Source of the DNA: an uncultured Pseudomonadales bacterium
GTDB lineage: Bacteria > Patescibacteriota > Microgenomatia > UBA1400 > UBA12108
Reading direction: 5' to 3'
Assembly (NCBI GenBank): GCA_964527065.1
Contig: CAZGNX010000001.1
Span: forward strand, 45 to 64,044
DNA: 64,000 nucleotides
Positions 10,201 to 39,248 of the stretch are shown here, in pieces; position 1 is the stretch's first letter, and every line of letters starts with the position of its first letter. Under the pieces are notes generated by a model that was not told the origin of the DNA, searched no databases, and saw only the letters and a program-made list of their open reading frames with translations. The translations under genes and the position numbers were made by a program.

Positions 10201-11451
10201 TCAGACCCTCTGATGGCGCGTTTTTTGCTCACTTGGTCGTTGCAGTCTGACCAGCCTTAGATACAGTAAAATTACAAACAATCCTTGAGGTGAGGTAAGG
10301 AAGTAGTGGTCTAGGAGGAGGAGGGGAATAAGAGGAATTAGAAAGTAGAAATTAGGAATTAGGTGGCGCAAGGTATATATAATCGCTAGCGCGCCGAGCA
10401 CGCCGAACCAGCTCAAGAAGAGAGTGAAGCTATTATGGTCTGGCTGGAGAAGGCGCGTGTTGGGTGCGACGGCTGGGTAGGTAGAAATACTAGCTTGGGC
10501 ACCCGTGCCAAATATGGGAAGTGACCGCATAACGGACAGCGAGACTCTCTGCAAAGTGCGGCGCTCAGAGAAGGATAGATCGGAGCGAGAGGGTGAGAGT
10601 AAAGTAGGAAATAGGAAATAGGAAATAGGAATAACTAGGAGGACAAAATACATAATTTTAGATTTTGGCGTTTTAATAAGATAGAAGGGGATCACGATAC
10701 CAAAGAGAGCAAGCGCGGCGGCGCGAGACTGGGTGAGGAGAACGCCAGCGACAGTTGCACTCGTTGAAATAATCAATAACCAATTACCAATAAGCAATTT
10801 TTTTGTTGGGGCTATTTTGATAAGTATAAGAAGTGAGACAACAAGCCAGCCTGCGAGAGTGTTGGGGTGAGAAAAGGTACCGTAAGCGCGGAGTACGACA
10901 GAGTCCATAAACGTGCCTAGGGCGACGGCAGGTTGACCCACAGCTATGGTTCGCTCGCCCAAGTAGTACAACAGTCTGTCGACGGAATGCCCGAGTGTAA
11001 CTTGGGTCGTGGCGAGGACGAGTTGGAATATCATGGAGGCGCCAAGAGGAATTAGGAAGTAGGAACTAGTAAAGAGGCGCAAGGAGAGGGTGTTAACAAA
11101 TAGCGTATAGAGTAAAAGGTGGAGTGACCAGGAGAGGGTGGAGAGAGCATTACTCGTGAACAGCAAGTTCACGAGTAAAACAATCAATAACCAATCATCA
11201 ATAATCAATTGTTGAACATTTTTATTGATAAAAAAATACACTAGAATTAACAAATCTAGAAAATATAGAGTGGGAGAGAGATAGTCGACGCGGATGCCGT
11301 ATACGAGACTAGTTTGGGGCCAGAAGTGTAGACCCAGCTGGGTCGCAGAAAAGAAAATAATCAGGCCGAGGAGGATGTTAGACAGTTTTGGTGGCGATAA
11401 ATAGCCGCCTGTCTTGTCCGTAGCCTTCGGAATAACTCGTGAATTCTGCAT
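10201..11451 (-). CDS. O-antigen ligase-like (Wzy_C family) polytopic membrane protein; start uncertain
   Basis: Polytopic membrane protein carrying 'LLTQSRAAALALFG' (the S-R-G/A...L motif region of the O-antigen ligase family). The upstream ORF extension overlaps jag, so the true start may be non-ATG. Contains an in-frame heptanucleotide repeat. Confidence 0.5.
   Translation of the reverse strand: MQNSRVIPKATDKTGGYLSPPKLSNILLGLIIFFSATQLGLHFWPQTSLVYGIRVDYLSPTLYFLDLLILVYFFINKNVQQLIIDDWLLIVLLVNLLFTSNALSTLSWSLHLLLYTLFVNTLSLRLFTSSYFLIPLGASMIFQLVLATTQVTLGHSVDRLLYYLGERTIAVGQPAVALGTFMDSVVLRAYGTFSHPNTLAGWLVVSLLILIKIAPTKKLLIGNWLLIISTSATVAGVLLTQSRAAALALFGIVIPFYLIKTPKSKIMYFVLLVIPISYFLFPTLLSPSRSDLSFSERRTLQRVSLSVMRSLPIFGTGAQASISTYPAVAPNTRLLQPDHNSFTLFLSWFGVLGALAIIYTLRHLIPNFYFLIPLIPLLLLDHYFLTSPQGLFVILLYLRLVRLQRPSEQKTRHQRV
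10607..10634. repeat. (GGAAATA)3 + GGAATAA heptanucleotide tandem repeat inside coding sequence
   Basis: Read directly from sequence. Encodes 'ISYFLFP' on the minus strand. The same repeat recurs at 31712-31746. Confidence 0.9.
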
Positions 11452-11830
11452 CGTCCTGGAGCATGACGTGAATCTGCCTTCGTTCAGTGGCTGAGAGGGG
11501 AGGGAGGGCACAGGGTAGGCCTGATATGCGCGCTTGTTCTTTGGCGTTTTTCATCATGGAGGCTAGAGTTTCGAGGCGGCGAGTGCGGTAGCCGGCAACG
11601 TCGAGCAAGACGTGGCGGTGTACGTCGCCGTGGTTGAGCATGAGCGAGATAATGAGCTGGAGCGAGTCAAGGGTTTGGGCAAAGCGACCGATTAAACGGC
11701 CGGCCTCGGTTTCTTCCATTTCGATCGTTACTTTGATGACATCCTCTTCTTCGACTACGCTGATTTGGGCGGCACTGATGTCAAAATAGGCTAGTAGTTG
11801 TTCAATTTTAGCTAAATCACTTGATTGCAT
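11378..11830 (-). CDS. jag: Jag/KhpB-like RNA-binding protein (KH + R3H domains)
   Basis: 150 aa. Sits immediately downstream of yidC in the conserved rnpA-yidC-jag arrangement. C-terminal 'SYSEGYGQDRRLFIA' resembles the R3H motif. Confidence 0.75.
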   Translation of the reverse strand: MQSSDLAKIEQLLAYFDISAAQISVVEEEDVIKVTIEMEETEAGRLIGRFAQTLDSLQLIISLMLNHGDVHRHVLLDVAGYRTRRLETLASMMKNAKEQARISGLPCALPPLSATERRQIHVMLQDDAEFTSYSEGYGQDRRLFIATKTV

Positions 11831-11839
11831 AAGGCCCCT

Positions 11840-12583
11840 TTATTTAAATAATTTAAACTTTCTGGCATATAGTGGGATGGCGCCTGGGCCAGAGACGAGG
11901 AGCTGTTGAATGAGAGAAAAGGCTGTGGTGATGACCCAATAGAGAGCGAGCCCTGAGGGGAACTGGAGTGAAAAAATCACCGTCATAATGGGCATCATAT
12001 AGACCATTTGTTGTTGCATAGAGGTAGCCATTTCGGCAATGTCTTGTTTGTCGTCTTTGGTGCCCTCGCGCCCAGCTGGCTCGTTCTCTACGGCAGGAAG
12101 AAGCGTGAGAGACATAACAAACTGGAGTATTCCAGCCAGGACCGGGAGAATATAGGTTTTGTCCTTGACTTTGAGGTCCCAGAGCAAAAAGTTTGTGATT
12201 ACTTCGCCCATACCATTGCCGCCGAGGGTGTTCATAAACACTTGATAGAGAGCGATGAGCACAATAAATTGAGCAATAAAGGGGAGACACCCGGCGGCAG
12301 GATTGACCCCGTGAGTTTTGTAGAACTCTAATTGTTTCTGCTGGAAGAGCTTGGCGTCATGTCCGTGCTTGCGCTTGAGAGCATCGAGCTCGGGTTTAAG
12401 TAAAGTCATCTTTTTGGCAGACTTGAGTTGCGGAAGCGTAAAGGGGATAAGCACGACGCGGACGAGCAGAGTGAGCACAATGATGGCTAGCCCTAAATTG
12501 TTGCCCAAGACACCATAAAGCCAGAGGAGAGTGTTAAGAATGGGTTGGTAAATGAATTGGTGATACATGCTGTTAATAATCAA
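11840..12583 (-). CDS. yidC: membrane protein insertase YidC (short form)
   Basis: 247 aa. 'LAIIVLTLLVRVVLIPFTLPQLKSAKKM...LKPEL' and 'GCLPFIAQFIVLIALYQ' conserved YidC/Oxa1 core. Confidence 0.9.
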   Translation of the reverse strand: MIINSMYHQFIYQPILNTLLWLYGVLGNNLGLAIIVLTLLVRVVLIPFTLPQLKSAKKMTLLKPELDALKRKHGHDAKLFQQKQLEFYKTHGVNPAAGCLPFIAQFIVLIALYQVFMNTLGGNGMGEVITNFLLWDLKVKDKTYILPVLAGILQFVMSLTLLPAVENEPAGREGTKDDKQDIAEMATSMQQQMVYMMPIMTVIFSLQFPSGLALYWVITTAFSLIQQLLVSGPGAIPLYARKFKLFK

Positions 12584-12607
12584 TAATCAAATAACAATAA
12601 TCAAACA

Positions 12608-12820
12608 TTATGGCACGGGGTCAAATCCGCCTGCAGACCATGGATGACATTTTAACAGTCTTTGTGCAGATAACCAAGCGCCAAAGATAAGGCCGTGTTT
12701 GTGGAGAGCCTCACGGGCATAGCGCGAGCAGGTGGGAGAGTAGCGGCAGCGGCCATGGGAGAGACCAAGATTGATGGCTATGGCTTTACTAATTTTCAAA
12801 ATCCATTTTACAATTTTCAT
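12608..12820 (-). CDS. yidD: membrane protein insertion efficiency factor YidD
   Basis: 70 aa. '[17 protein letters not shown]' conserved YidD core. Position between rnpA and yidC. Confidence 0.85.
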
Positions 12821-12827
12821 TTAATCT

Positions 12828-13154
12828 TCAATTGCCAAATTTCAAATTGCCCAATTCGGAAATGATTAATTGTTTGGTGGCGAGAGATTTTTTGAGCAGG
12901 AGCGGTTTGTAGATGATTACTACGTCGAGTTTTTTGTCTATTATTTGTGGCCAGAGGGTATCATAGGTCAGGCGCTTGAGCCAATTGCGTGAAGAGGCTA
13001 ACTTGGAAAGTTTTTTGGGGACGACGACCGCGAGGCGGGAAGGGGAGTGGGGCGCAAATAATGTGCGGAAATGAGGGGCGGCTGTTTGTTTGGCGCTTGT
13101 GCGGAAGCGCAGTAGCTCAGTGCGGAGGGGGAATTTACTTGATTTGGGGATCAT
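12828..13154 (-). CDS. rnpA: ribonuclease P protein component
   Basis: 108 aa, basic. 'RLKRLTYDTLWPQI' region. Synteny rpmH-rnpA-yidD-yidC. Confidence 0.8.
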   Translation of the reverse strand: MIPKSSKFPLRTELLRFRTSAKQTAAPHFRTLFAPHSPSRLAVVVPKKLSKLASSRNWLKRLTYDTLWPQIIDKKLDVVIIYKPLLLKKSLATKQLIISELGNLKFGN

Positions 13155-13192
13155 AAGACAATATTAAACCAATGCACCATTAAACCATTTGG

Positions 13193-13327
13193 TTAAACGG
13201 TGAGCTTGGCGCGGCCCGTGGCGCGGCGGCGGGAGATGACCAGGCGGCCTTTGTGGGTGGACATCCGCTTCATAAAACCGTGGACGTTGCGACGCTTGAT
13301 TTTTTTGGGCTGATATGTGCGTTTCAT
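13193..13327 (-). CDS. rpmH: 50S ribosomal protein L34
   Basis: Not in the ORF track (44 aa). Hand translation gives [44 protein letters not shown], canonical L34. Confidence 0.85.
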
Positions 13328-13457
13328 AAAGTAATTTACAAATTGTAATTTACAATTTACAAGTAAAGTGTATTTTAGCAGGGGAGAGGGGATTTGTCAC
13401 GGTGGGAGGTAGTTTGGATATATTGTGGTGTGTGGAAAAGTTGTGGATAATAAAGAT
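13328..13457. promoter_or_regulatory. rpmH/dnaA divergent promoter region with AT-rich direct repeats and a DnaA box (oriC part I candidate)
   Basis: 'aatttaca' x3 AT-rich repeats at 13330-13362. TGTGGATAA (complement of TTATCCACA) at 13441-13449, just upstream of the likely dnaA start at 13458. Confidence 0.5.
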
Positions 13458-14804
13458 ATGGATATCCTATCAGTATGGAAGGCGGTTTTAAGTGAGCTTG
13501 AACTCTCTATATCGCCCGTCTATTTCCCCACTTGGATTAAACCACTTTCGCTTGCATCGATTGAGCAACTCAGCGAGGAGACAATCCTGGTCACAATAAT
13601 GTGTCCGTCGGGCTATCACCAGTCAATGGTGTCCCAGCGATATCGCGGGCAAATTCAGAGGAGTTTAGAGCGAATTTGTGGGGGAGGGGTAGAGCTTGCA
13701 TTTGTAGTTGGTCGAGACGATCCTGGTCCCAGATCCTTGCCGAGTGCGCCTTTGTTTGCTGAACCCCTGGCGAAGGAAGTGGGTGCGGGGTCACATAATC
13801 TCAACCCCCGCATGACTTTTGAGGCTTATGTCGTTGGGGGGTCAAATAACTTTGCCTATGCGGCCGCGCAGGGAGCGGCCAAGAGCCCAGGTACAAGACA
13901 TAACCCGCTCTTTATCTATGGTGGGGTGGGGCTTGGGAAAACACACCTAATGCAGGCAGTGGGGCATGCGATCTACCACGACCACCCTGACTGGAACATT
14001 ATGTACATCTCGGCAGAGACGTTTGGCAGTGATTTGATTGCGAGCTTACAGAACAAAAAAACTCCAGCCTTTAAGAAAAAATACCGCGCGCCCAATGTTT
14101 TGCTTGTTGACGATATTCAGTTTATTGCCGGCAAAGAGTATATTCAAGAAGAATTTTTTCACACTTTTAATCAACTCTATATGTCTCAGCGCCAGGTGAT
14201 TTTGACCTCTGACCGGCCTCCGCAGGAGATTGTCAAGCTCGAGGAGAGGCTTTCGTCCCGCTTTATGGGAGGACTAATGGTAGACGTCCAGTCCCCCGAC
14301 TTTGAAACCAGGGTGGCGATCCTTACTCAAAAAAGCGAGACGCTAAAGATTTCTATTCCGAAGGAGGCGATTGCCTTGATTGCAGAGCGCACAACAACCA
14401 ATATCCGCGAACTGGAGGGCGCCCTCCAGGGAATTTATGCAAAGGCCTTGCCCGGCGGGGGAGAGATTACGAGCGACCTAGTGCGAGAGTATTTTGGTGC
14501 AGAGCGGGAGAGGCGAACCCAGCGGATTCGCCCCCAAAGCGTGATTGCCAAAACTGCCCAGTACTTTTCTTTTAAACCCTCCGAGCTCTTGGGGAGTAGC
14601 CGCAAGGCCCCTCTGATCGCTGCGCGACACGCGGCCATGTATGTCCTCTATAGCGACCTACGCTTGCCTTATGAGCAGGTAGGGAGGCTAATGGGGGGGA
14701 GAGACCACACCACAGCGATCCACGCGGTCGAGAAAATCACCCAACAACTCAAAACTGACCCCGCGATGGCAAAAATTATTGCCGACATCAAACATGGATT
14801 ATAA
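13458..14804 (+). CDS. dnaA: chromosomal replication initiator DnaA
   Basis: Walker A 'GGVGLGKTHL', Walker B 'LLVDDIQFIAGKE', sensor/box VII region, C-terminal DNA-binding 'AARHAAMYVLYSDL...IGRLMGGRDHTTAIHA'. N-terminus 'MDILSVWKAVL' is typical. The ORF extends to 13425. Confidence 0.95.
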   Translation: MDILSVWKAVLSELELSISPVYFPTWIKPLSLASIEQLSEETILVTIMCPSGYHQSMVSQRYRGQIQRSLERICGGGVELAFVVGRDDPGPRSLPSAPLFAEPLAKEVGAGSHNLNPRMTFEAYVVGGSNNFAYAAAQGAAKSPGTRHNPLFIYGGVGLGKTHLMQAVGHAIYHDHPDWNIMYISAETFGSDLIASLQNKKTPAFKKKYRAPNVLLVDDIQFIAGKEYIQEEFFHTFNQLYMSQRQVILTSDRPPQEIVKLEERLSSRFMGGLMVDVQSPDFETRVAILTQKSETLKISIPKEAIALIAERTTTNIRELEGALQGIYAKALPGGGEITSDLVREYFGAERERRTQRIRPQSVIAKTAQYFSFKPSELLGSSRKAPLIAARHAAMYVLYSDLRLPYEQVGRLMGGRDHTTAIHAVEKITQQLKTDPAMAKIIADIKHGL

Positions 14805-14965
14805 CTATGGGGAAAACTATGGTAAAAAATAGTTATCCACAACACTTAGGAGTTTTCCACATTGTTGTCCACTGGATTTTCCCCGAACCCTGCAGAGAAT
14901 TGTTCGACAATCCACCGGCTCTACTACTAATACCATTTAACTTAAGATATATTTAGTATTAGCTT
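14805..14965. promoter_or_regulatory. oriC candidate: DnaA-box cluster plus AT-rich unwinding element in the dnaA-dnaN intergenic region
   Basis: Perfect TTATCCACA at 14833-14841. Near-boxes TTTTCCACA (14855-14863) and TTGTCCACT (14867-14875). AT-rich 'taataccatttaacttaagatatatttagtattagctt' at 14925-14965. Confidence 0.55.
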
Positions 14966-16063
14966 ATGAAGATAGAAGTACTCCAGGAACAAATGATGTC
15001 GGGCATGACGACCGTGGCGCGGGCTGTGGCTAACCGCGCTCAACTGCCAGCACTTAGCCATATCCTGATTGAAGCAAAAAGGGAGGGGTTGATACTCTCC
15101 GCGACTGACCTGGAGGTGGGAATGCGCGTGAAGGTGGCGGCAAAGGTTGTAGTCGAAGGGAGGGTGGCTGTACCCGCCAAAATGCTCCTAGAGTTTTTGG
15201 GCTCGTTGAACCCGGGGCGCGTGGAGATTGTAACTCAAGGAGACTCCTTGTTGGTTTCTGCCCCTGGGTATAGCGCCAAGTTTCAGACCATAAGCCCCGA
15301 AGAGTTCCCTGCATTGCCTGAGATAGTGGGTGACACAGAGACGTGCGTACTCGAAGGGAAAGCCTTGGCAGAGGGGGTTGAGCGCGTAGCTTTTGCAAGT
15401 GCGCGCGATACACTGAGGCCCGTACTAACTGGCGTATTATGGGAAGTCTCCAAGAAAAAGGTGCGCTTGGTAGCGACCGACGGGTTTCGCTTGGCAATTG
15501 AGGAGATTGTAGCCGAAAACAAGGGAGAGGTCGGGGCCTTTTTAATTCCCTCCAGGGCCTTGGTGGAGGTTGTGAGATTGCCCACCGAAGGGAAGATCAG
15601 GGTGGGCAAGTTGAGTGCGACTAACCAGCTCTTTTTTGAGGTGGGGGACGTTCAGCTGATGTCGCAGTTATTGGATGGCAACTTCCCCGACTACCAAAAA
15701 ATCATACCCAAAGAATTTAGTACAGAGATTAAAGTAAATAGAGAGGAGCTAACGCAAGCAATTAAGGCAATGTACATTTTCGCCCGAGAGAACTCGAACA
15801 TGGTGCGCTTCCAGATTGAGAGAAACAAATTGGTACTTCTTGCCAGCTCGAGTGAGCGTGGTGAGTCGAGGGCGGAACTCCCCATAACTCTCTCTGGAGA
15901 GCCCCTTGAGATCATCTTTAATGCGCGATATGTGCTTGACTATCTATCAATTGTCGAAGGCGAGCAGGTTGAGATAGCGATGGGAGGGAAGCTCGCGCCG
16001 GGATTGTTTTGTCAATCTAATCGCGAAGGTGGGCAATACATTGTAATGCCGATTAACGCCTAA
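14966..16063 (+). CDS. dnaN: DNA polymerase III beta sliding clamp
   Basis: 365 aa. Three-domain clamp architecture. 'LLDGNFPDYQKIIPKE' conserved motif. Follows dnaA. Confidence 0.95.
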   Translation: MKIEVLQEQMMSGMTTVARAVANRAQLPALSHILIEAKREGLILSATDLEVGMRVKVAAKVVVEGRVAVPAKMLLEFLGSLNPGRVEIVTQGDSLLVSAPGYSAKFQTISPEEFPALPEIVGDTETCVLEGKALAEGVERVAFASARDTLRPVLTGVLWEVSKKKVRLVATDGFRLAIEEIVAENKGEVGAFLIPSRALVEVVRLPTEGKIRVGKLSATNQLFFEVGDVQLMSQLLDGNFPDYQKIIPKEFSTEIKVNREELTQAIKAMYIFARENSNMVRFQIERNKLVLLASSSERGESRAELPITLSGEPLEIIFNARYVLDYLSIVEGEQVEIAMGGKLAPGLFCQSNREGGQYIVMPINA

Positions 16064-28911: not shown

Positions 28912-31551
28912 CTAGAACCCTGGTAGCTTGATAATATCACCCGCGACAATACGCAAAATCGAGACCGAGAAAATAAGGAAGAGGAGTCCGGTGACGGCGG
29001 CACCAAAGAGTTCTTTGCCTTTTTTGAGTTTCTCGTCATTGTCTCTGGCGGTCATGATTTGGAAGATGGCGATAAACATCACCACGATAGCGATACCGCC
29101 GGCTAGGCCGACCAAGAAAGCAAAAAGCGCGGTGCCAAAGGCCTCTCTCGTGTAGGGGATACAACCCAGGGCGGTGGAGAGTGATTGCGGGCCACAACTC
29201 GTGGGGAAGAAGCCGAAGGTGCCAGGCTCGTTGTCTGGTGTTGTGGGGGGGATTAGTGGGGCGGGAGGGGGAGAGGGGAGCTCGGTATTTTCATAACCAC
29301 CCTTGGTCATGTTGTTATACACGCTGAGAGCAACAGTAAACGAACCAGGTCTTTCAAAGATTTGAGGGGCGCAGGCGGTGCGGTCGGCACAGTAGAGGAG
29401 ATACATCGAATCGTGTTTGCCATCGAGGAAGCTGGTCGGGTAGGGATCGTCCTCGCCTTCAAAAGCGCGGGGACAGCCGCCATAGGGGATGGGATAAGGA
29501 TAACCGAGTTGACAGTTACTGTTGCCACCACCGTTGTAGCGGGAGAGAGCGGTGATGGCAGTCTGCGCATCCCCAATTGCCCCGCCCACCTTGCCTTTGA
29601 GATGTTCACCCGCATAGACGGCAGTCTCAAGGAGGGAGCGGAAGATCTTACCGCCCGCATCGGGCTCGGGAGTGCCGAGAGCCCGCCCAGAAACGAGTGA
29701 GCCATTGGGGTTATTGGCCGCCTCGACAAAGTGGATACCCGCCAAGATTTCACACGGTACGCCGGTCTCCTTTTCGGCGGCGGCATAGGTGTTCATTAGT
29801 TCGGCGCTCAAATTGGGTTGGATAAACGTCGAGAAGTAGCTCTCGCCCTTGGCGCTCGCGCTCTGATAATTACTACTGCCAAGCAGTTCACCAAACAGCC
29901 GTCCGTCACATTTACCTTCTGGTACCACCTGGGCGGTATCGCAGCCATTGCGGGTACCCAGAGCGTACGCCTCAACGCTAGTCTCAAGCTGAGCGGAAAA
30001 CATGTTGTCAGCACAGGTGTAGTAGCCATAATGACGCCTACCATCGGCGGGACCTGAGTATTTGCCTGCTTTGAGAAGATCAAGGTTGTCGTCTACGACA
30101 TTGCTGAGTTTAACATTAAACTCTTTGACTGATTCTAGCTCGGCCAAGGTATCGCGAGTGTCGTAGGTGTATTGCTTAATCTCTGCGATACTTTGACCCA
30201 TTGCGTCTGGAATTGTCAAGAGGTGATAAACGACAGGTTCAACGTCGTCAATCTGAGCGCCCCAAATGAGATTGATGAGAGCTTGTAGAAGGTTGCCGGT
30301 GGGGAATGCCGCGGCCTTTTCTTTTTGTACCTCTGGTTGGAGGCGGTAGCCAGGGCAGTTTTTATCTCCTCCGAGAAAAGATGGTGTTTCCAAATAGTCG
30401 TAGATTTGGTAAAAGGCGCCGTAGGAACCAAAGTGATATTTGAAACAGGGATTGCTCGCCATAAGCTCTGGAATGAGGCGTGCCTTAATCTTTTTGGCGG
30501 TGGCGTTTGGCGCCGCAGAGCCAGCAAAGCGAATTAGCTGGTTGGACGAGGCAAGGTCGCGAATTATTTTGCTTGCCTCATCTAGTGGATAGGTGAGAAG
30601 TAGATCGTCAAGGGCGGCGCCAAAGGCTTGGGAGATAGAGATGTCGCCGTAGAGCGCGTTGGAGTTGCCCTCCAACGCAAGGCTGCTAAAGGGGCAGTTT
30701 TCTCCGGGGCAACAGCGATCCCAGACGCAGATACTGGCGTGGACATACCCCTGGCGAAACGAGGGGCTATACATCGGGACTTGGGAGAGGTCCCTAAACC
30801 ACTCAGGTGGGGTAGTTTGTGAAGCTGCCTCTTCTATAGCGTCACAGGCTCGTTTACGGGAGCTTGAGGCATCGGAGACGGCATCGAGATTGCCGGCGTT
30901 TAAGAAAAAATCGTCCGTTGCTTCCACTATCACCTGTCCAGCCCCTGCCAATCCTCCAGGTATTTCGTCGCGGATCTCGAGTAAGGTTTTGCCGTTCTGG
31001 GTTGTGTAGCCCCAGTCGACCCAGCCAAGTGGCCACTGCCCAGTCTCAGCTAGAGTGTTCTTGGTTTGCTTGGCACGAATCACGACCATGAGCTGTTTGG
31101 TCATGATCTCGCACTGAGTAAGCCCGAGGAAGTGGGTACCCCAAGTGATCGCGTTATCTGTACCCATGTTGCCATACAAGAGGGCTTCGTTTTGGATTTT
31201 GGGGAAAACGAGGCGAGTGAGTGGACGAGCGCCCGTCTCAGCTCCCGTTTCTTGATTCAGTGTCCGATTCTCAGCGGAAAAGTCCGTAGCTTTGATATCG
31301 GAGCCAACGCGGGGTTTTTTCTTGTACTCACATTCGCCCACGCTAACCCCACTCTTGGTAGGATCTTTGATGGCGGTACAACTACCATTGCCTGAAGAGA
31401 CTGTACTATGATAATCACCTCTGCCATTGGCCACCTTGCGCTCACAGAGATCAACCTCTCCACCATCACAGCCGTCAATGAGCTCGCCTGATTGATTATC
31501 GCGCTCACAATAGTCATCTCTACGATCAGCACCTTCGTACTCACAGACCAT
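28912..31551 (-). CDS. giant secreted fusion protein: Cys-rich region + SLT-like lytic transglycosylase motif + C-terminal VirB2/TrbC-like pilin module. Preceded in frame by a signal-peptide ORF cut off by TAG
   Basis: 879 aa from the Met at 31551. 'ILAGIHFVEAANNPNGSLVSGRALG' resembles the SLT catalytic 'ESSFNPNA...GA.GLMQ'. The last ~80 aa ('LGCIP...GLAGGIAIVVMF...KKGKELFGAAVTGLLFLIFSVSILRIVAGDIIKLPGF') are nearly identical to ORF 38811..39248. Confidence 0.7.
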   Translation of the reverse strand: MVCEYEGADRRDDYCERDNQSGELIDGCDGGEVDLCERKVANGRGDYHSTVSSGNGSCTAIKDPTKSGVSVGECEYKKKPRVGSDIKATDFSAENRTLNQETGAETGARPLTRLVFPKIQNEALLYGNMGTDNAITWGTHFLGLTQCEIMTKQLMVVIRAKQTKNTLAETGQWPLGWVDWGYTTQNGKTLLEIRDEIPGGLAGAGQVIVEATDDFFLNAGNLDAVSDASSSRKRACDAIEEAASQTTPPEWFRDLSQVPMYSPSFRQGYVHASICVWDRCCPGENCPFSSLALEGNSNALYGDISISQAFGAALDDLLLTYPLDEASKIIRDLASSNQLIRFAGSAAPNATAKKIKARLIPELMASNPCFKYHFGSYGAFYQIYDYLETPSFLGGDKNCPGYRLQPEVQKEKAAAFPTGNLLQALINLIWGAQIDDVEPVVYHLLTIPDAMGQSIAEIKQYTYDTRDTLAELESVKEFNVKLSNVVDDNLDLLKAGKYSGPADGRRHYGYYTCADNMFSAQLETSVEAYALGTRNGCDTAQVVPEGKCDGRLFGELLGSSNYQSASAKGESYFSTFIQPNLSAELMNTYAAAEKETGVPCEILAGIHFVEAANNPNGSLVSGRALGTPEPDAGGKIFRSLLETAVYAGEHLKGKVGGAIGDAQTAITALSRYNGGGNSNCQLGYPYPIPYGGCPRAFEGEDDPYPTSFLDGKHDSMYLLYCADRTACAPQIFERPGSFTVALSVYNNMTKGGYENTELPSPPPAPLIPPTTPDNEPGTFGFFPTSCGPQSLSTALGCIPYTREAFGTALFAFLVGLAGGIAIVVMFIAIFQIMTARDNDEKLKKGKELFGAAVTGLLFLIFSVSILRIVAGDIIKLPGF

Positions 31552-31644
31552 TAGTGGTTGATAGTCACGAGTGAGATCGCGGTTTTCGTAGACTTTGAAA
31601 TATGGTGCTCGTATGAAACGAAAGAGACTGAATAGCTCAAACTA

Positions 31645-31773
31645 CTCCTCGCGCTCGGGGTTGCCTTCAATAGAGAAGGGGGGGAAGGGGTCGATGGCCA
31701 GGGAAAGAGGAGGAAATAGGAAATAGGAAATAGGAAATAGGAATAATACGAAAAAACGCAAGAGCTTTTTCAT
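31645..31773 (-). CDS. signal-peptide mini-ORF (43 aa) in frame with the 879-aa gene but separated by TAG (31642-31644). Possible pseudogene 5' part or readthrough site
   Basis: Hand translation: MKKLLRFFVLFLFPISYFLFPPLSLAIDPFPPFSIEGNPEREE*. 'LA|IDP' matches the cleavage context of the 145-aa paralogue ('AALAIDP'). Frame stays open from 31641 to the Met at 31551. Confidence 0.5.
31712..31746. repeat. (GGAAATA)4 + GGAATAA heptanucleotide tandem repeat within the signal-peptide ORF
   Basis: Read directly. Same unit as 10607-10634. Encodes 'FPISYFLFP'. Confidence 0.9.
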
Positions 31774-32072: not shown

Positions 32073-32280
32073 ATGGGATGATTATAGCAAAGAGCAAGGG
32101 TCGGATGATCACATTAATTTTATCTCACTGACTAAAATTGATCTCAAATACGATTGCTCGCAGGCTTCTCGTCTGCACCTGTTCGACTAGACGGCATACT
32201 CGCATTTTCAGGCGAATTTTCGCTCAATTTCTTAACGTATGTTCGTAAAATTAACGATGATCATCCTCACGCTAGGAGTC

Positions 32281-32631: not shown

Positions 32632-32680
32632 ATCTTTCTCCTTATTTGTACTATCTAGTTATAGTGTAGTCAATTATTGA

Positions 32681-33049
32681 TTATTGTGCAATACCTATTC
32701 CAAAGAAATAATCTAGCAGGAGATAGACTGCCCAAGCAGAGGCGACAATGGCGAGTCCAATGATGCCGTTGGTGATTTTGGCGCGCGCTTCGTCCAGTTT
32801 GCCCTTGTCACCACCGGAACTAATCCACTGCAGACCTCCATAGATAAGATAGAGGAGCGTGGCAAGGCCAGCCACAAGAATAATGGCAGAGATGGTTTTG
32901 CTGACGAATGAGCCAAGATCGGTGTTGATGGCGACGCGTGATTCGACCTGATCACCTATACTGACGTTGAATGAGCCGGCTTGGGCATGAGCTGAGCTAG
33001 GAAAGAGGAAAGAGGAAAGAGGAAATAGATACAGTAAAATTTTTTTCAT
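32681..33049 (-). CDS. VirB2/TrbC-like pilin family small protein (paralogue 3)
   Basis: 122 aa. Signal peptide 'MKKILLYLFPLSSFLFPSSAHA'. 'GGLQWISSGGDKGKLDEARAKI'. Confidence 0.55.
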   Translation of the reverse strand: MKKILLYLFPLSSFLFPSSAHAQAGSFNVSIGDQVESRVAINTDLGSFVSKTISAIILVAGLATLLYLIYGGLQWISSGGDKGKLDEARAKITNGIIGLAIVASAWAVYLLLDYFFGIGIAQ

Positions 33050-33053
33050 ATGC

Positions 33054-33443
33054 TCAGCCGGCAGTGGGCCAGATTATATTGAGTATATTCATCCCGATGG
33101 CCATCTCAATAAACTTGATAATGACATAAGAGGCAGCGAGGAGGGCGAGTCCCACGAGACCTTGGGTGATTTTGCCCCTAGCTTCGTCGATCTTGCCTTT
33201 GTCACCCCCGGCCGTGATCCACTGTAAGCCGCCGTGCAAAAAGTAGAGGATAAACGCGAGCCCACCTACAAGAATGATGGTCTGCCAAAGAGTAGCGATC
33301 GTGATAGCAAATTGTTGTGGGGAAGCATCGGGTGAGTCACCTCCTGGTACGGCGGTGTTGGTGATGGCGGCATGCGCCAGAGACGCTCTTGTATAAAGTA
33401 TGGAGTATAGGGTATATAGTATCGGGACTATTTTGTTTGTCAT
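33054..33443 (-). CDS. VirB2/TrbC-like pilin family small protein (paralogue 4)
   Basis: 129 aa. 'GGLQWITAGGDKGKIDEARGKI'. N-terminus 'ILYTLYSILYT' is encoded by a degenerate AGTATRG heptamer repeat (33395-33425). Confidence 0.55.
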   Translation of the reverse strand: MTNKIVPILYTLYSILYTRASLAHAAITNTAVPGGDSPDASPQQFAITIATLWQTIILVGGLAFILYFLHGGLQWITAGGDKGKIDEARGKITQGLVGLALLAASYVIIKFIEMAIGMNILNIIWPTAG

Positions 33444-33445
33444 TT

Positions 33446-33805: not shown

Positions 33806-33809
33806 ATGT

Positions 33810-34148: not shown

Positions 34149-34152
34149 AAGT

Positions 34153-34473: not shown

Positions 34474-34510
34474 GTCTCAAGTATAGCGTATCCAGTATAA
34501 TGTATATAGT
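34474..34510. promoter_or_regulatory. 37-nt divergent promoter region between the pilin array and the ECF sigma operon; GTATA-type heptamer periodicity
   Basis: 'gtctcaagtatagcgtatccagtataatgtatatagt'. Contains a TATAAT-like hexamer and AGTATAG / CGTATCC / AGTATAA / TGTATAT / AGTATGG 7-mers. Confidence 0.4.
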
Positions 34511-35047
34511 ATGGAGGAATTGGTTGAGAAAGTCTTGAATGGTCAGAAGGGGGCGGCGACGCGGTTTTACCACACCCTTTCGCCTAGCGTAAAGCGATAT
34601 TTGGCAGGCAAACTACCTGGGCATGAGGAGGTGGAGGAGCTAACCCAAGAAGTGTTTTTGTCGGCACTTGACTCGCTATCACTCTACCGTGGTGAGTCCA
34701 GTCTCAAGACCTGGATACTCTCGATTGCCCGCCACGAAGTGGCGGACTATTACCGCAAGCGTTATGTACGTGCCGTCATTGAGCAGACCTCCCCATTATT
34801 TGATGCGATCGTGGCAGATATCCATACCCCAGAATTTGAGATGAAGAAGAGCAAGCTTAGAGCCCGGTTTATGCGGGCATATCATGGTCTGAGTGAGCAA
34901 TACCGAGATGTTTTGAGTTTTCGCTTTGAGCTAGGGATGAGCGTCAAAGAGATTGCAGAGAGAATGGAAATGAGCGTCAAGGCGACAGAGTCACTGCTCT
35001 TTAGAGCACGAACAGCATTTAGAGTGGCTTATGAAACCAGAGAATAG
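34511..35047 (+). CDS. ECF-type RNA polymerase sigma-70 family factor
   Basis: 178 aa. Region 2 ('EELTQEVFLSALDSLSLYRGESSLKTWILSIARHEVADYYR') and region 4 HTH ('MSVKEIAERMEMSVKATESLLFRAR'). Confidence 0.85.
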   Translation: MEELVEKVLNGQKGAATRFYHTLSPSVKRYLAGKLPGHEEVEELTQEVFLSALDSLSLYRGESSLKTWILSIARHEVADYYRKRYVRAVIEQTSPLFDAIVADIHTPEFEMKKSKLRARFMRAYHGLSEQYRDVLSFRFELGMSVKEIAERMEMSVKATESLLFRARTAFRVAYETRE

Positions 35048-35267
35048 ATTTATCGCTGAGTTGGAACAAAAAGCCAAAGAACAGCAAAAATTGGTGGATA
35101 CTCAGATCATTCCTGGTTGGGCACGCGGCTTAGGTAATTGGCTGGCGGTGAACCCTTGGCGACTGGTAATACCAGTCGCCGGTATTGTGTATGGAGTATT
35201 GCGTATAGTGTACGGGGAACAATTTAGAGAATTAATATTAGGACTGTTTGGGGGATTTGCCAGATGA
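35031..35267 (+). CDS. putative anti-sigma factor (single-pass membrane protein)
   Basis: 78 aa. Overlaps the sigma gene end. Cytoplasmic helical N-terminus then TM 'LVIPVAGIVYGVLRIV'. Confidence 0.4.
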   Translation: MKPENRFIAELEQKAKEQQKLVDTQIIPGWARGLGNWLAVNPWRLVIPVAGIVYGVLRIVYGEQFRELILGLFGGFAR

Positions 35268-35569
35268 AAACACTTGTTTTGTGGATGAGCTATGTGTGGA
35301 GCGTGACACTGGCCGGACTCGCGATCCATCCTTACCAGTCGGTGAGGAGGATGGTGTTGGATAAGCCAGTATTGCTGCCAGTTACGCTTTCGCCAGTTCT
35401 GGGTCTTGTGGGACTATTTGTGGTTGGGAGGGTGTTTAGCTATGCATTTACCCTTGGCCCCATAGGACGTGAGCTCGCGGCCCTCGTGCTGGGGAGTACA
35501 CTGATTGGGCTCTTGTTGTGGCAAGGACTTCTCATTGCACTGGTTCTACGGTTTTGGCGCGCCCGGTGA
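35264..35569 (+). CDS. small polytopic membrane protein (sigma operon)
   Basis: 101 aa, three hydrophobic helices. ATGA overlap with the upstream gene. Confidence 0.45.
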   Translation: MKTLVLWMSYVWSVTLAGLAIHPYQSVRRMVLDKPVLLPVTLSPVLGLVGLFVVGRVFSYAFTLGPIGRELAALVLGSTLIGLLLWQGLLIALVLRFWRAR

Positions 35570-35760
35570 ATGATTAGCTGGACTTTGGCGACAATAGGGT
35601 GTGGAGCGAGAGGGTTACAGCGTACCCAAGATTTGGCGTTGGCATCAGAAATTGTGGGAGCTGAATAGAGCGACTCTGCAACATCAGATGGAGGAGGACA
35701 AGAAAGATTTGGAGAGGACAAGCGCGAATGATTTAGGGATAAAAGACGACTGTATTGTTT

Positions 35761-36309
35761 ATGCAAAACAGGCAAGTGGTCCTCGTGGATGAGCAAGATC
35801 TGGAGATAGGGACGGCTGATATATACGAGGCACACCAGGGCAAAGGTCTTAAACACAGGGCATTGTCAGTGATTTTGTATCGGAAGAAAAATGGCAAGAT
35901 AGAATTACTACACCAAAAGCGGGCAGAGGCGAAGCCAGTGTTTAAAATGCTCTGGAGCAATACGTGTTGCACCAACATGCGGCCAGGTGATGAATATTTG
36001 CCGCGTGCAGCCAGTCGGCTCGAAGAGGAGATGGGAATCAAAATTGGTCGAGAGCAGTTAAGAATTTTGTATGCGTTTAGCTATGAAGCGCCTGATCCTG
36101 CACAACCAGGTTGGTGCGAGAATGAACTAGATACAGTCATTGTGGGCGAGTGGGATGGAGAAGTGAAGATAAACCCAGAAGAAGCGGCCGATTATAAGTG
36201 GATAGAGCGGGACGACTTGAAGCGGGATGCCGAGCAACATCCAGAGATTTATTCACCCTGGCACAAGATCATTGTTAATGATCCACGATTTGGGGAGGGG
36301 CTGGGGTGA
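35761..36309 (+). CDS. idi: isopentenyl-diphosphate delta-isomerase, type 1 (Nudix fold)
   Basis: 'VVLVDEQDLEIGTADIYEAH...LKHRALSVILY' and the conserved 'WSNTCC' cysteine motif of IDI-1. Confidence 0.8.
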   Translation: MQNRQVVLVDEQDLEIGTADIYEAHQGKGLKHRALSVILYRKKNGKIELLHQKRAEAKPVFKMLWSNTCCTNMRPGDEYLPRAASRLEEEMGIKIGREQLRILYAFSYEAPDPAQPGWCENELDTVIVGEWDGEVKINPEEAADYKWIERDDLKRDAEQHPEIYSPWHKIIVNDPRFGEGLG

Positions 36310-36806
36310 GTGAAAAATGGGGCGTGGGAGGGATTGGGGTGACTATTGCAGGGGAAATTCTGTTATTCCCCCCAAATCCTGAGAATGCAGGGAAGTTAGA
36401 AAAAATTGAAGGCAATAAATCTGTATACGAGGATATAGAATATCTTTGGGAATCTTTTGGGGGGGCGGTTGATGCGGGAGATTGGGTAGGACTTAACTCT
36501 GTATTACAGTTTGCATTGATACGTGAATCCCTGGAAGAAAGAGGGGTCGATCTATCTCCAGACCAGTTAACACAGATGACTGAGGGATTCGTGGTTGAGC
36601 AACATAGAGAAAACAGAGATGTAAGTTTTTTAGTTGCCTGCTTTATAATCAGGTTAAACCAGGATCAAGAGCACTTCCTACGAGACAAGGGAGCTACTGT
36701 CTTAACAGAGTTTAAGGATTTGAGACCAAGAGATAGAGAAATGGTCAGAATGTATAAAGAAACTATCGGAATTCCAGTCGAGATACAACAAATGGTGTAC
36801 GCATGA
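36306..36806 (+). CDS. hypothetical protein with degenerate Nudix box (operon with idi and IPK)
   Basis: 166 aa. 'GGAVDAGDWVGLNSVLQFALIRESLEERGV' retains the R-E-x2-E-E-x-G-u part of the Nudix signature. Confidence 0.4.
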   Translation: MSEKWGVGGIGVTIAGEILLFPPNPENAGKLEKIEGNKSVYEDIEYLWESFGGAVDAGDWVGLNSVLQFALIRESLEERGVDLSPDQLTQMTEGFVVEQHRENRDVSFLVACFIIRLNQDQEHFLRDKGATVLTEFKDLRPRDREMVRMYKETIGIPVEIQQMVYA

Positions 36807-37597
36807 AAAAACTCATCTTACTTAAAATTGGCGGGGGGGTAATCACTGACAAGAATGTGCAGTATGGGTTGCGGGATGATATCTTATCTAGATTGGCAAG
36901 TGAGATTAGTGAAGGATGGAGGGAGTTGAAAAACACAAAAATAATTATTGGGAATGGGGCGGGGTCATTTGCACATTTTTCGGCCCATAAATATCGAACT
37001 ATCGAAGGATTTGTGGATGAAAATAGTCGAGTAGGTCTTGGGTGGGTGAGATATGATGCGGTTAAGTTAAATCAAATAGTGCTGGAGCAATTATTGTTGA
37101 GAGGAATACCAACTTTCTCTTTTTCTCCTTCATCGATGATGAGTGTTAAAAATGGTAAAACAAAAAAAGTCTTCATGGAATCAATGGTTGATGCTATGGA
37201 GCTAGATATGGTGCCTCTGGTTTATGGAGATCCCGTCATAGATGAGTCCAAGGGCTGTGATATTTACTCGACAGAGAAAGTATTTGATGAGTTGGCAGCC
37301 TACTTTGCCAAAAAGTATGAGGTAAGAGTAATTCATATAAGCTCAGAGGAAGGTGTCTACAAAAAAGGACAGGCAAGTGTATTTAATGTAATCACGAGAG
37401 ATAATTTTGCGGAAGTAAAGAATCATTTGGGTGGGTCAAACGGCGTAGATGTCTCGGGGGGGATGTTGCACAAGGTGGAGGAATGTCTTGGTCTAGCTAA
37501 GCTAGGGATCACAAGCCAGATAATTAGCGGGATGGTCCCTGGACGAGTTTCTGATGCTATGCTTGGTAAGAAAATTATTGGGACAACTATATGCTAG
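36803..37597 (+). CDS. ipk: isopentenyl phosphate kinase (amino-acid kinase fold; archaeal-type mevalonate pathway)
   Basis: 264 aa. 'ILLKIGGGVITDK' N-terminal kinase motif, 'IIGNGAGSFAH', 'VSGGM'. Confidence 0.7.
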   Translation: MKKLILLKIGGGVITDKNVQYGLRDDILSRLASEISEGWRELKNTKIIIGNGAGSFAHFSAHKYRTIEGFVDENSRVGLGWVRYDAVKLNQIVLEQLLLRGIPTFSFSPSSMMSVKNGKTKKVFMESMVDAMELDMVPLVYGDPVIDESKGCDIYSTEKVFDELAAYFAKKYEVRVIHISSEEGVYKKGQASVFNVITRDNFAEVKNHLGGSNGVDVSGGMLHKVEECLGLAKLGITSQIISGMVPGRVSDAMLGKKIIGTTIC

Positions 37598-38346
37598 ACA
37601 AGAATCGAGTACCCAGCCACGTAGGCATCATAATGGACGGGAACCGGCGGTGGGCCAAGAAGCAGGGGCTCGCGGCGGTGGCGGGACACGCGTATGCGGT
37701 CGATAACGTGGTAGAACAATTGATAGAGCACGCGGGGGAATTGGGCATCAAATATTTAACACTCTGGGCTTTTAGTACCGAGAACTGGGGGAGAGAAAAG
37801 GGGGAGGTTACTGCGCTTATGAACTTGTTCCGAAAGGCACTCGTGACCAAAGTTCAGAAATTTATTGAGAGAGGGGCAAGGCTCCAGATGATCGGAGACG
37901 TAACAAGTTTTGCGCCAGATATCCAGGAAGGGATGAAAAATGCCATGAAGGAGAGCGAGAAAAATGACAAAATTACCGTAACTTTCGCGCTCAACTATGG
38001 CGGGAGAGATGAGATCGTTAGAGCAGTGAATAGGATGGTGAGGAACCATGAGGAGACACCTTCCGCCTCTGGCGTCCCGACTCGAGATTCTCTCGCGTCT
38101 CCTGTTAAGGAGTCTCCTCTAATCACAGAATCCGAACTAGAGGGGTACTTAGATTCGGCGGGGACGCCTGATCCGGATTTCATCATACGGACAGGAGGAG
38201 AGAAGCGGACGAGTGGGTTCTTGATGTGGAGTGCTGCTTATGCAGAGTGGTACTTTACCGAGACCTTGTTCCCTGATTTTGGGCCAGCGCAGTTTGATGA
38301 GGCGATAGAGGAGTATCTGCGGAGGCAGAGACGGTTTGGGAAATAA
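37591..38346 (+). CDS. uppS: undecaprenyl-diphosphate synthase (cis-prenyltransferase)
   Basis: 'HVGIIMDGNRRWAKK', 'LTLWAFSTENWGR', 'RTGGEKRTSGFLMWSAAYAEWYF'. Carries a ~50-aa insertion (Ser/Pro-rich) before the final motif. Confidence 0.9.
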   Translation: MLDKNRVPSHVGIIMDGNRRWAKKQGLAAVAGHAYAVDNVVEQLIEHAGELGIKYLTLWAFSTENWGREKGEVTALMNLFRKALVTKVQKFIERGARLQMIGDVTSFAPDIQEGMKNAMKESEKNDKITVTFALNYGGRDEIVRAVNRMVRNHEETPSASGVPTRDSLASPVKESPLITESELEGYLDSAGTPDPDFIIRTGGEKRTSGFLMWSAAYAEWYFTETLFPDFGPAQFDEAIEEYLRRQRRFGK

Positions 38347-38493
38347 TTGAGGAGGATCGGCCAGACATATTTTGCTTTTGTGAAGCTCACTTCAGGAAAA
38401 ATTTTCTCGTGATGGTGTTCTCGTCATTTTTCTTGAAAGGTTCGACCCTACAATGCGCAAAATAGTCCCGTCCTGCACCTCGTTATTTGCATT

Positions 38494-38808
38494 CTATGAG
38501 ATGATGTTGACTTTGAAGATGACCTGGAGGATTTGAGCGATCCAGTAGGCGAGGAAGATGACAAAGAAGCCGGTGAGGGCGCCGGTCACCATTTTTTTAC
38601 CTTTTTCTTGTGACTCTTTGTCGGCGGCACCGGCGAGCATGGTAAAGCCTCCAAAGACTAGCATTCCAAGTAAGATTAGTCCTGCGATCGTCAGTAGATA
38701 AGGAAGAAAGCCACCAATGATGCCACCAAGGCTATCGGTGTCTGCAAGACTGCCACTGCCCAAGCCGATTGCTTTATTGAGAGATGTATAGTCGATGAAT
38801 TCTGGCAT
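38494..38808 (-). CDS. VirB2/TrbC-like pilin family small protein (second locus)
   Basis: 104 aa. 'GGFTMLAGAADKESQEKGKKMV' between hydrophobic helices 'LLTIAGLILLGMLVF' and 'GALTGFFVIFLAYWIAQIL'. Confidence 0.5.
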   Translation of the reverse strand: MPEFIDYTSLNKAIGLGSGSLADTDSLGGIIGGFLPYLLTIAGLILLGMLVFGGFTMLAGAADKESQEKGKKMVTGALTGFFVIFLAYWIAQILQVIFKVNIIS

Positions 38809-38810
38809 AT

Positions 38811-39248
38811 TTAATTAATGAACCCTGGTAGTTTGATGATATCACCTGCAACTATTCGTAGAATAGACACGGAGAAGATAATAAACAAAAGTCCGGTGAT
38901 CGCTCCAGTAAATAATTCTTTGCCCTTTTTAACTTGTTCGGCATTATTGCCACCAGTCATAATCTGGATAGTTGCAATGAGCATAATGATGATGGAGATA
39001 CCTCCCGCTAAACCTGTAAGAAAGGTGAGGAGGGCGGAGGAAAATCCGGCAGTAGAGGTGGGGATACAGCCAAGACCCGTGTTGATCTGTGGGTTTGTGG
39101 CGGAGCTACCGGGGCACCCACTAGTGGGGTCGATGGCGAGGGCCGCAGGGGCGAGTATAAAGTATAGAGTATAGAGTATGGAGTATAGAGCTGGGCGAGC
39201 GTGTGTTAGGATATGGGTATGGTTTCTCTCTGGAAAAAGCTTGTTCAT
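38811..39248 (-). CDS. free-standing pilin module paralogous to the C-terminus of the 879-aa protein
   Basis: 145 aa. 'GLGCIPTSTAGFSSALLTFLTGLAGGISIIIMLIATIQIMTGGNNAEQVKKGKELFTGAITGLLFIIFSVSILRIVAGDIIKLPGFIN'. Signal-peptide codons lie on an (AGTATAG)5-type heptamer repeat (39153-39189). Confidence 0.6.
   Translation of the reverse strand: MNKLFPERNHTHILTHARPALYSILYTLYFILAPAALAIDPTSGCPGSSATNPQINTGLGCIPTSTAGFSSALLTFLTGLAGGISIIIMLIATIQIMTGGNNAEQVKKGKELFTGAITGLLFIIFSVSILRIVAGDIIKLPGFIN
39153..39189. repeat. AGTATAA/AGTATAG/AGTATAG/AGTATGG/AGTATAG heptanucleotide tandem repeat in a signal-peptide coding region
   Basis: Read directly. Encodes 'LYSILYTLYFIL' on the minus strand. Confidence 0.85.

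Follow-up and report, generated by a model that had tools for sequence, protein, structure and literature searches.

Microsatellites with a unit of seven nucleotides (nt), that is, heptanucleotide arrays, are distributed over a 64,000-nt stretch of DNA from an uncultured bacterium (a Pseudomonadales bacterium by name; GTDB lineage Patescibacteriota, Microgenomatia, UBA1400, UBA12108; GenBank assembly GCA_964527065.1, contig CAZGNX010000001.1, positions 45 to 64,044 of the forward strand), and this whole stretch is called the window hereafter. In the window such arrays encode the hydrophobic core in each of four pre-sequences of T4SS_pilin-type proteins and lie in five internal linkers of a membrane protein of the Wzy_C (O-antigen-ligase) family. 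An earlier note, made from the sequence alone, regarded these repeats as contingency loci, in which each slippage event shifts the reading frame. The present analysis favours a different reading: the arrays are probably dispersed heptanucleotide microsatellites which are in frame by selection and supply membrane segments under low constraint, rather than frameshift switches.

The window was searched with Tandem Repeats Finder (TRF) and the expected numbers were taken from third-order Markov shuffles. There are 13 arrays of period 7 against 1.13 expected (about 11-fold) and four of period 14 against 0.13 expected, and a strict detector applied to periods 4-15 gave near-perfect arrays at period 7 only (4 versus 0 expected). 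In addition, the two-unit 14-mers of three families, GGAAATAGGAAATA, AGTATAGAGTATAG and AATAATCAATAATC, have 13, 7 and 12 matches, where about 0.5, 0.3 and 0.5 are expected. The arrays are 3.9-5.4 units long; nine of the 13 period-7 arrays are coding, all of them in minus-strand genes, and the stretches holding these nine have mean Kyte-Doolittle (KD) values of +0.7 to +1.8. Every array that the earlier note had located (10607-10634, 31712-31746, 33395-33425, 34478-34510 and 39153-39189) was found there, and so were the peptides reported for four of them, namely [IF]PISYFLFP from both GGAAATA arrays (IPISYFLFP in the Wzy protein and FPISYFLFP in the fusion gene), LYSILYTLYFIL in a 145-amino-acid (aa) protein and ILYTLYSILYT in a 129-aa protein. 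Overlooked there were the arrays at 32999-33025, at 10333, 10768, 11047 and 11182 in the Wzy gene, and two intergenic ones:

12575-12605, intergenic: (AATAATC)x4.3, directly upstream of yidC, of the same family as the arrays of Wzy linkers 1 and 3.
13333-13362, intergenic: (AATTTAC)x4.3.

A weaker second class of period-8 arrays (5 versus 1.7 expected in the window), both coding and intergenic, includes ATTAGACC, AATTGCCA and ATTAAACC at 4353-4387, 12830-12856 and 13163-13189, respectively.

For comparison, 80 loci anchored on a Wzy orthologue were taken from species-representative Microgenomates/Patescibacteria genomes, 1.39 Mb in total. Period 7 is the commonest tandem-repeat period in these loci (259 arrays versus 49.6 expected, 5.2-fold), so the heptanucleotide arrays are a trait of the lineage and not of the locus. 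The observed/expected ratio is 4.7 for period 14, 2.6 for period 8, 1.1 for period 10, 1.7 for period 11 and 1.4 for period 13, and the arrays scoring at least 40 number 120 for period 7, 32 for period 8 and 8 for period 6. The longest array found in the relatives has 7.6 units, and 106 of 166 arrays lie wholly inside open reading frames (ORFs).

The first group of array-bearing genes in the window belongs to a cluster of small PF18895 (T4SS_pilin) paralogues which adjoins the gene of an extracytoplasmic function (ECF) sigma factor. The label "pilin" used in the earlier note is right in the sense of PF18895, that is, TrbC/VirB2-type proteins; type IV pilins they are not. With a cut-off of 26.6 bits, the 98-aa (33.5 bits) and 122-aa (28.7 bits) proteins score above it and the 129-aa (24.1 bits), 145-aa (22.5 bits) and 879-aa (18.0 bits) proteins below it; many orthologues of the 129-aa protein have a precomputed PF18895 match. 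The repeats of this group are as follows:

31711-31746, minus strand: (GGAAATA)x4 + GGAATAA, perfect; core FLFPISYFLFP of the large-protein pre-sequence MKKLLRFFVLFLFPISYFLFPPLSLA, which is followed by IDP.
32999-33027, minus strand: (AGGAAAG)x3.9, perfect; core FPLSSFLFP of the 122-aa T4SS_pilin paralogue (gene 32681-33049).
33391-33426, minus strand: degenerate AGTATAG-family array, 4.6 units, 76% matches; core ILYTLYSILYT of the 129-aa paralogue (gene 33054-33443).
34474-34510: 37-nt spacer between the divergent genes of a 106-aa pilin and the ECF sigma factor; AGTATAG CGTATCC AGTATAA TGTATAT AGTATGG.
39153-39190, minus strand: AGTATAG-family array, 5.4 units, 87% matches; core LYSILYTLYFIL of the 145-aa pilin-like protein (gene 38811-39248).

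The spacer is thus filled by five degenerate NGTATNN units. In the coding cases the arrays fall within codons 6-32 of four pilin-type genes. The array is the hydrophobic core in all four pilin-type proteins of the window that have a signal-peptide-like N-terminus, and the six paralogues that have no such N-terminus have no array. By inspection, these N-termini show the layout of a cleavable Sec-type signal peptide, that is, a basic n-region, a hydrophobic core (h-region mean KD 1.2-1.8) and an AxA motif, and the pre-sequences predicted by eye are MKKILLYLFPLSSFLFPSSAHA before Q in the 122-aa protein, MTNKIVPILYTLYSILYTRASLAHA before A in the 129-aa protein, a segment ending in ARPALYSILYTLYFILAPAALA before I in the 145-aa protein and MKKLLRFFVLFLFPISYFLFPPLSLA before I in the large protein. 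The array-built pre-sequences would accordingly be read as signal peptides, and the earlier claim that arrays build the signal peptides of several exported proteins appears to hold for the four T4SS_pilin-type proteins, and not for Wzy.

The pre-sequences were also compared among 120 orthologues of the 129-aa paralogue (67-100% identical) and in the DNA of 49 metagenome loci. The mature N-terminus AITNTAVPGG is near-invariant in the 120 orthologues, and the pre-sequence before it varies from 5 to 45 residues. Runs of at least four identical residues occur in these pre-sequences at a lag of 7 only (10 proteins); the other lags from 3 to 12 gave none. At the position of ILYTLYSILYT, the orthologues P0125, P0126 and P0163, which are 74-86% identical to the window protein, have FLFPISYFLFP, a peptide encoded in the window by the family of the Wzy and large-protein arrays. 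True DNA arrays are present in the pilin loci, namely (TATTTCC)x4 in L087, (TATTTCC)x3 in L119-121 and a TATCTCC-type array in L084.

The gene of the large protein is interrupted in the window and is represented by two ORFs:

31642-31773, minus strand: 43-codon ORF (signal peptide + 14 aa), with ATG at 31773 and TAG at 31642-31644.
28912-31551, minus strand: 879-aa ORF, the body of a large secreted protein which has 953 aa when intact.

The two ORFs are in the same frame with the TAG between them, and over its last 104 residues the large protein shares 60% identity with the 145-aa pilin-like protein. In another assembly of the species, L001, the TAG codon is TAT (Tyr) and the ORF is uninterrupted, so the large gene is broken in the window by a TAT-to-TAG substitution and not by slippage. 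The earlier assignment of an array to the signal peptide of a giant pilin fusion is consequently right for the intact gene of L001, and in the window the fusion is interrupted by the TAG. A second single-nucleotide polymorphism (SNP), from E to D, is located 6 nt from the TAG (window 31642-31648, L001 844-850), and only seven SNPs, these two included, were found in 7.1 kb. The pair may be a real loss-of-function polymorphism or else an assembly error.

The second site of the arrays is the Wzy_C gene, which has the following features:

10201-11511, minus strand: gene of a Wzy_C (O-antigen-ligase family) membrane protein, PF04932, with five period-7 arrays.
11182-11209, minus strand: linker 1 array, AATAATC/TTGATTA family, 4 units, 80% matches; QLIIDDWLLI, aa 101-110.
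11047-11069, minus strand: linker 2 array, AGGAACT type, 3.3 units; TSSYFLIP, aa 148-155.
10768-10798, minus strand: linker 3 array, AATAACC/AATAATC family, 4.4 units; KLLIGNWLLII, aa 238-248.
10605-10634, minus strand: linker 4 array, (GGAAATA)x3 + GGAATAA, 100% matches; IPISYFLFP, aa 294-303.
10333-10363, minus strand: linker 5 array, AGGAATT type, 4.4 units, 83% matches; HLIPNFYFLIP, aa 383-393.

The protein scores 42.9 bits with PF04932 (cut-off 31.7), and a search of it against NCBIfam matched no model. It has 329 homologues, nearly all of those listed with PF04932, which come from metagenome bins of the Microgenomates group (candidate phyla radiation (CPR)/Patescibacteria); the nearest, the window's own NCBI copy excepted, is 63% identical. 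The true start is likely to be the ATG at about 11451, where the orthologues begin (MQNSRV...). The NCBI product of this gene (P0001, 346 aa) begins after the conserved TQLGLHFWP...YGIRVDYL block, and the start codon was also called too far downstream in all three array-bearing pilin pre-sequences that were checked (L133 659-700, L134 502-540 and L135 668-700). Because starts are misplaced both in pre-sequences and in the window Wzy gene, the N-termini in these genomes are systematically under-annotated.

The earlier note had correctly put a GGAAATA array inside this O-antigen-ligase-like gene and was mistaken in counting it among signal peptides; it lies in an internal variable linker (residues 294-303), and instead of the one array noted there are five, all in internal linkers. 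The linker 3 array is an insertion common to only some of the orthologues, and the linker 4 array is lineage-specific. In the 80 related loci the Wzy orthologues make up 6.8% of the sampled DNA and hold 60 of 156 period-7 arrays (binomial P about 1e-29), and 36 of the 80 have at least one array. The density is 0.57 arrays per kb in Wzy_C orthologues, 0.06 in other proteins with at least six transmembrane (TM) segments, 0.02 in proteins with 2-5 TM segments and 0.03 in those with none, so that the idea that any polytopic membrane protein tolerates arrays was rejected. When the arrays are mapped onto the window Wzy protein, 57 of 58 fall inside five short regions (residues about 90-109, 130-159, 230-249, 270-299 and 380-399), which are the same as the array sites of the window and which, in the orthologue alignment, are low-conservation linkers separating conserved blocks. 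The units themselves vary among genomes, and many of them encode peptides that are not hydrophobic, for example, KLQTSNFKLQT and NLRFTIYDLRFTI. The AlphaFold model of the protein has a mean predicted local distance difference test score (pLDDT) of 53.8 and is good for rough helix ends only.

Furthermore, longer peptides recur at different linkers of different Wzy orthologues, sometimes twice per protein: FEN[LW]RI[WY]DLR; RSDLLRKSW..AKMFSRTSKT.SETRSD; RLFDRRPEQSSSRDAEGG; and QFRSLRDSRRAIGT. They were seen in P0005, P0008, P0012-P0016, P0033, P0047, P0060 and P0082 and at L016 640-720, and one of them borders an assembly gap. These recurrent inserts look like repeat DNA that landed in frame.

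The coding arrays are restricted in orientation and in composition. Since the purine-rich orientation of GGAAATA, AGTATAG and AATAATC contains stop codons, only one orientation of these units can code, the complement giving peptides such as YFLFPIS and LYSILYT. Units whose perfect form holds a stop (AATTCCT and GATTATT) occur solely as degenerate, stop-free versions. The G content of the coding strand is 7% in arrays and 20% in their host genes. Avoidance of stop codons was rejected as the cause of this depletion, as it predicts 19%, and replication-strand bias was rejected as the cause of the orientation of arrays, as the Wzy genes of the relatives lie on either strand relative to the GC skew.

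Units are shared within a genome and turn over between genomes. Pairs of arrays with identical units account for 9.1% of pairs within a genome and for 0.9% between genomes, a 10-fold difference, and the arrays at 10605 and 31711 are 97% identical over 33 nt and have a common degenerate end unit, GGAATAA (10634 and 31746). Homogenisation is seen in the orthologous pilin genes of L087, with (TATTTCC)x4, and L084, with TATCTCC-type units, in which the flanks and the length of 23 codons are equal and each unit has the identical T-to-C change; the ATTTCCT and CTTTCCT arrays of the window differ likewise. Because units are homogenised, slippage or conversion does happen over evolutionary time. Replacement is seen between L119-121 and L128, whose mature domains have 91.6% nucleotide identity, with 24 of 26 differences at third positions; their first 15 nt are equal, and their hydrophobic cores derive from unrelated arrays. 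In addition, L128 has a signal peptide of the array type in the neighbouring paralogue, where L120 lacks one. Judging from these alignments, predicted signal peptides arise, disappear and are recomposed, with hardly any change in the mature protein. In Wzy, P0106 and P0109 are the same save for linker 1 of P0106, which has a second copy of the linker 3 segment. Gaps of 7 aa in close Wzy pairs were considered as three-unit changes and this was rejected, because the gaps are N-terminal replacements or element copies.

These observations suggest a course of events in which slippage would be the origin of the arrays and selection the filter. The arrays would be dispersed microsatellites of 3-6 units, in Microgenomates mostly intragenic and translated. 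At least three units of 7 nt are read in all three phases and give a peptide with a period of 7 residues, so that selection would keep only suitable arrays, namely those in the stop-free orientation, of a frame-preserving net length and at a site tolerant of almost any sequence. One such site would be the T4SS_pilin-type pre-sequence, where a pyrimidine-rich and G-poor array would serve as the core between the MKK n-region and the AxA cleavage motif, and the other would be the five short linkers between conserved blocks of the Wzy_C-family enzyme. A few unit families would be common to the genes of one genome and would be homogenised by slippage or conversion, and the replacement of whole array segments between close relatives would rewrite signal peptides.

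A function as contingency loci, in which slipped-strand mispairing by one unit would switch the pilin-like proteins and Wzy on and off at high frequency, has to be weighed against this because the layout invites it: the unit is not a multiple of three and occurs near the 5' ends of four pilin-type coding sequences as well as in a divergent promoter spacer, surface and envelope genes are the class typical of phase variation and both hotspots are envelope families, and the homogenised units imply slippage or conversion on evolutionary time scales. The layout also formally resembles neuO of Escherichia coli K1, with its AAGACTC repeats in the 5' coding region; like the present arrays, those of neuO and of hmw1A/2A of Haemophilus influenzae are heptanucleotide tandem repeats which lie at the start of, or ahead of, a surface or surface-modifying gene and are translated in all three phases (PMC13001214; PMC2651432). 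However, neuO has 3-53 units in 64 genomes, of which 65.6% are OFF (PMC13001214), and the hmw promoters have 13-38 units (PMC2651432), while the present tracts have 3.9-5.4 units in the window and at most 7.6 in the relatives; thus, theirs are long and strain-variable, with about two thirds of neuO OFF, and those here are of 4-5 units, invariant in the available assemblies and in frame (PMC13001214; PMC2651432). None of 58 arrays in the 80 Wzy orthologues is out of frame, which would have a chance of about 1e-6 if 20% of alleles were OFF, and the roughly 40 pilin pre-sequences are likewise all in frame. L001 and the window differ by seven SNPs and no indels in 7,098 bp with four arrays covered, 24 contigs derived from many sequencing runs all have the same array-bearing pre-sequence of P0130, L119-121 are identical in three samples, and the ILYTLYSILYT array keeps its length at 76-83% orthologue identity and changes by point substitution. 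Moreover, the single broken gene carries a nonsense substitution and no slippage event. Several candidate OFF alleles were rejected: L016 and L018, which appear as multi-frame Wzy genes in tblastn, both have N-runs; in the short pilin pre-sequences the start directly follows the upstream paralogue and leaves no room for a hidden array; and the "truncated" P0198, P0153 and P0144 have a full signal peptide in frame, the gene caller having taken an internal start. As far as consensus assemblies show, the number of units is constant and the arrays are always in frame, which the earlier note itself had named as evidence against its frameshift proposal, and a switch of this kind is very unlikely. 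Chance, a compositional artefact or an assembly error can practically be dismissed as the explanation: single arrays are short and some are degenerate (33391 and 34472), but chance is excluded by the shuffle controls and identical arrays were recovered by different pipelines in independent assemblies.

Two other explanations concern the nucleic acid and the origin of the arrays. The arrays might act as sites for a heptamer-recognising protein or RNA, or as G-poor unstructured mRNA which tunes translation or membrane targeting, the peptide being a tolerated by-product. This would suit the 7% coding-strand G that is not due to stop-codon avoidance, the intergenic occurrence of the same families near gene starts (12575 upstream of yidC and the spacer 34474-34510), the genome-specific unit families, the regulatory role proposed for dispersed heptamers close to start codons in Nostoc and Beggiatoaceae, and the reported binding of one CspB protein per heptamer (PMC4679880; bioRxiv 10.1101/2022.06.06.494920). 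On the other hand, no heptamer-binding factor was identified, the units differ widely among genomes and have no match in Rfam, and the Wzy arrays are as much as 1.1 kb away from the start codon and occupy five protein-defined linkers, which points to constraint at the protein level. Alternatively, the arrays might be footprints or pieces of a small mobile or copied element, similar to a miniature inverted-repeat transposable element (MITE) or a Rickettsia palindromic element (RPE), which was inserted whole at favoured sites, some of them in frame within genes. The AATAATC family does include elements of this appearance:

40918-41026, intergenic: inverted-repeat element of about 110 nt with arms of AATAATC-like units; hairpin of -32.7 kcal/mol, z = -4.5.
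58175-58286, intergenic: second inverted-repeat copy of about 110 nt; z = -1.7.
45469-45525, plus strand: left arm of the inverted-repeat element, in frame in a ComF-family gene and translated as IINNHIPINKQIQNSNAQIPKQ.

Besides these two elements and the ComF-gene arm, 36-nt pieces of the family are present in Wzy linkers 1 and 3; the degenerate end unit common to the arrays at 10605 and 31711, the second copy of the linker 3 element that P0106 has in linker 1 and P0109 lacks, the recurrent peptides inserted at differing linkers among Wzy orthologues and the precedent of in-frame insertion by RPEs (PMC10969869) speak for the same. However, the data revealed neither a transposase nor terminal repeats nor target-site duplications, although these were not specifically examined, and most arrays are pure tandem heptamers with no element flanks and with very diverse units. 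RPEs and other intragenic MITEs resemble the present features in being short repeated DNA, in frame in unrelated genes, that adds a peptide at tolerant sites, and RPEs are unlike the present arrays in having about 150 bp and a conserved peptide, those here being mostly pure tandem heptamers of 27-38 nt with no recognised ends (PMC10969869). As this explanation concerns origin and not function, it overlaps the reading of selected in-frame microsatellites and does not exclude it. The G depletion, the Wzy_C hotspot and the spread of units keep both explanations alive, each as an unlikely but serious alternative. More improbable still, and offered as a conjecture, is that active lineage-specific copying writes one genome-specific 7-nt family into both the pilin pre-sequences and the Wzy linkers and that the set is swapped between relatives; the repeats might then be a co-varying recognition or co-regulation code which links the enzyme to its pilin substrates and diversifies the surface with no frameshift.

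Several points weigh against the arrays being no more than tolerated, selected microsatellites that supply membrane segments. In all related loci the coding arrays have a mean KD of 0.05 against a background of 0.03, and just 7.5% of coding arrays are in the first 40 residues; because the relatives' arrays are no more hydrophobic than the background, hydrophobicity is a trait of the unit families of the window and no general rule, and it is in the pilin family alone that arrays are linked with signal peptides. Stop-codon avoidance fails to explain the low G content (7% and not the predicted 19%), and tolerance alone leaves the approximately 10-fold excess of Wzy_C over other polytopic membrane proteins unaccounted for. 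Perfect arrays, unit-wide substitutions and the common end unit GGAATAA imply active copying or homogenisation. In addition, the n-h-c layout, assessed by eye, is the basis for assigning signal-peptide function, and stability was judged from consensus assemblies with one clearly independent assembly of the species (L001); L002 and L083 match the window exactly, stem from a single run and may be the source sample of the window itself, so that they were not counted as independent, and look-ups found no second assembly on record that covers the Wzy gene.

Heptamer repeat families as such are already known. According to a survey summarised in PMC4679880, heptanucleotides are the most abundant class of long simple sequence repeats (SSRs) in prokaryotes, and polymerase-related slippage was proposed there as the origin of the excess; as far as that summary goes, the survey agrees with the present data in the dominance of period 7 among non-multiples of three and differs in that units with a multiple of three were the likeliest to be coding, whereas here the 7-nt class is mostly coding. 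In Beggiatoaceae and cyanobacteria, TAACTGA occurs in sets of 2-6 and Nostoc PCC 7120 has (TTTTGAA)3-4 and GAC(C/T)AAT x8, and such short tandemly repeated repetitive (STRR) sequences are used for fingerprinting (PMC4679880; bioRxiv 10.1101/2022.06.06.494920; PMC5088731). TAACTGA contains stops in the forward orientation and is translatable in reverse (PMC4679880). These repeats resemble the present ones in the 7-nt unit, in sets of about 2-8 at many sites, in genome-specific units and in one translatable orientation. They differ in being mostly intergenic and close to start codons, as are 22 of the 24 mapped sets of Microcystis; the arrays here belong to a CPR phylum, comprise many different units, and are found in ORFs (106 of 166), in one enzyme family and in pilin pre-sequences. 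The literature search found no report of heptamer repeat families in CPR/Microgenomates, and none of heptanucleotide arrays as signal-peptide cores or at fixed linkers of one enzyme family.

If the arrays are indeed selected microsatellites, they would be a widespread natural case of functional protein segments born directly from microsatellite DNA and would bear on the origin of secretion signals. The misplacement of start codons at array-bearing pre-sequences matters for the annotation of candidate-phyla genomes, and the findings caution against inferring phase variation in uncultured episymbionts solely on the basis of repeat architecture. The 10-fold Wzy_C hotspot, which sits at five fixed linkers in dozens of species, poses a well-defined and testable question.

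As for the remaining features of the window, the inverted-repeat elements sit between tandem plus-strand genes, and the predicted hairpin of the first spans 40915-41026. The insert in the ComF-family gene lies just ahead of the phosphoribosyltransferase (PRTase) motif. An Rfam search of the window assigned no family to the arrays or to the inverted-repeat elements. The GC skew is strongly positive in every 2-kb bin of 1-64000 (+0.09 to +0.31, mean about +0.19) regardless of gene direction. A transfer-messenger RNA (tmRNA) of 449 nt is predicted on the minus strand at 44295-44743 (Rfam, 68 bits; not reported by ARAGORN), and the ORF at 44497-44748 which overlaps it is probably spurious. A class II tRNA-Ser with the anticodon ACT is encoded at 51858-51949 on the minus strand (ARAGORN and manual reading of the anticodon loop CTACTAA), 37 nt from tRNA-Ser(GCT). 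Apart from tRNA-Arg(ACG), bacterial tRNAs rarely have an A at position 34.

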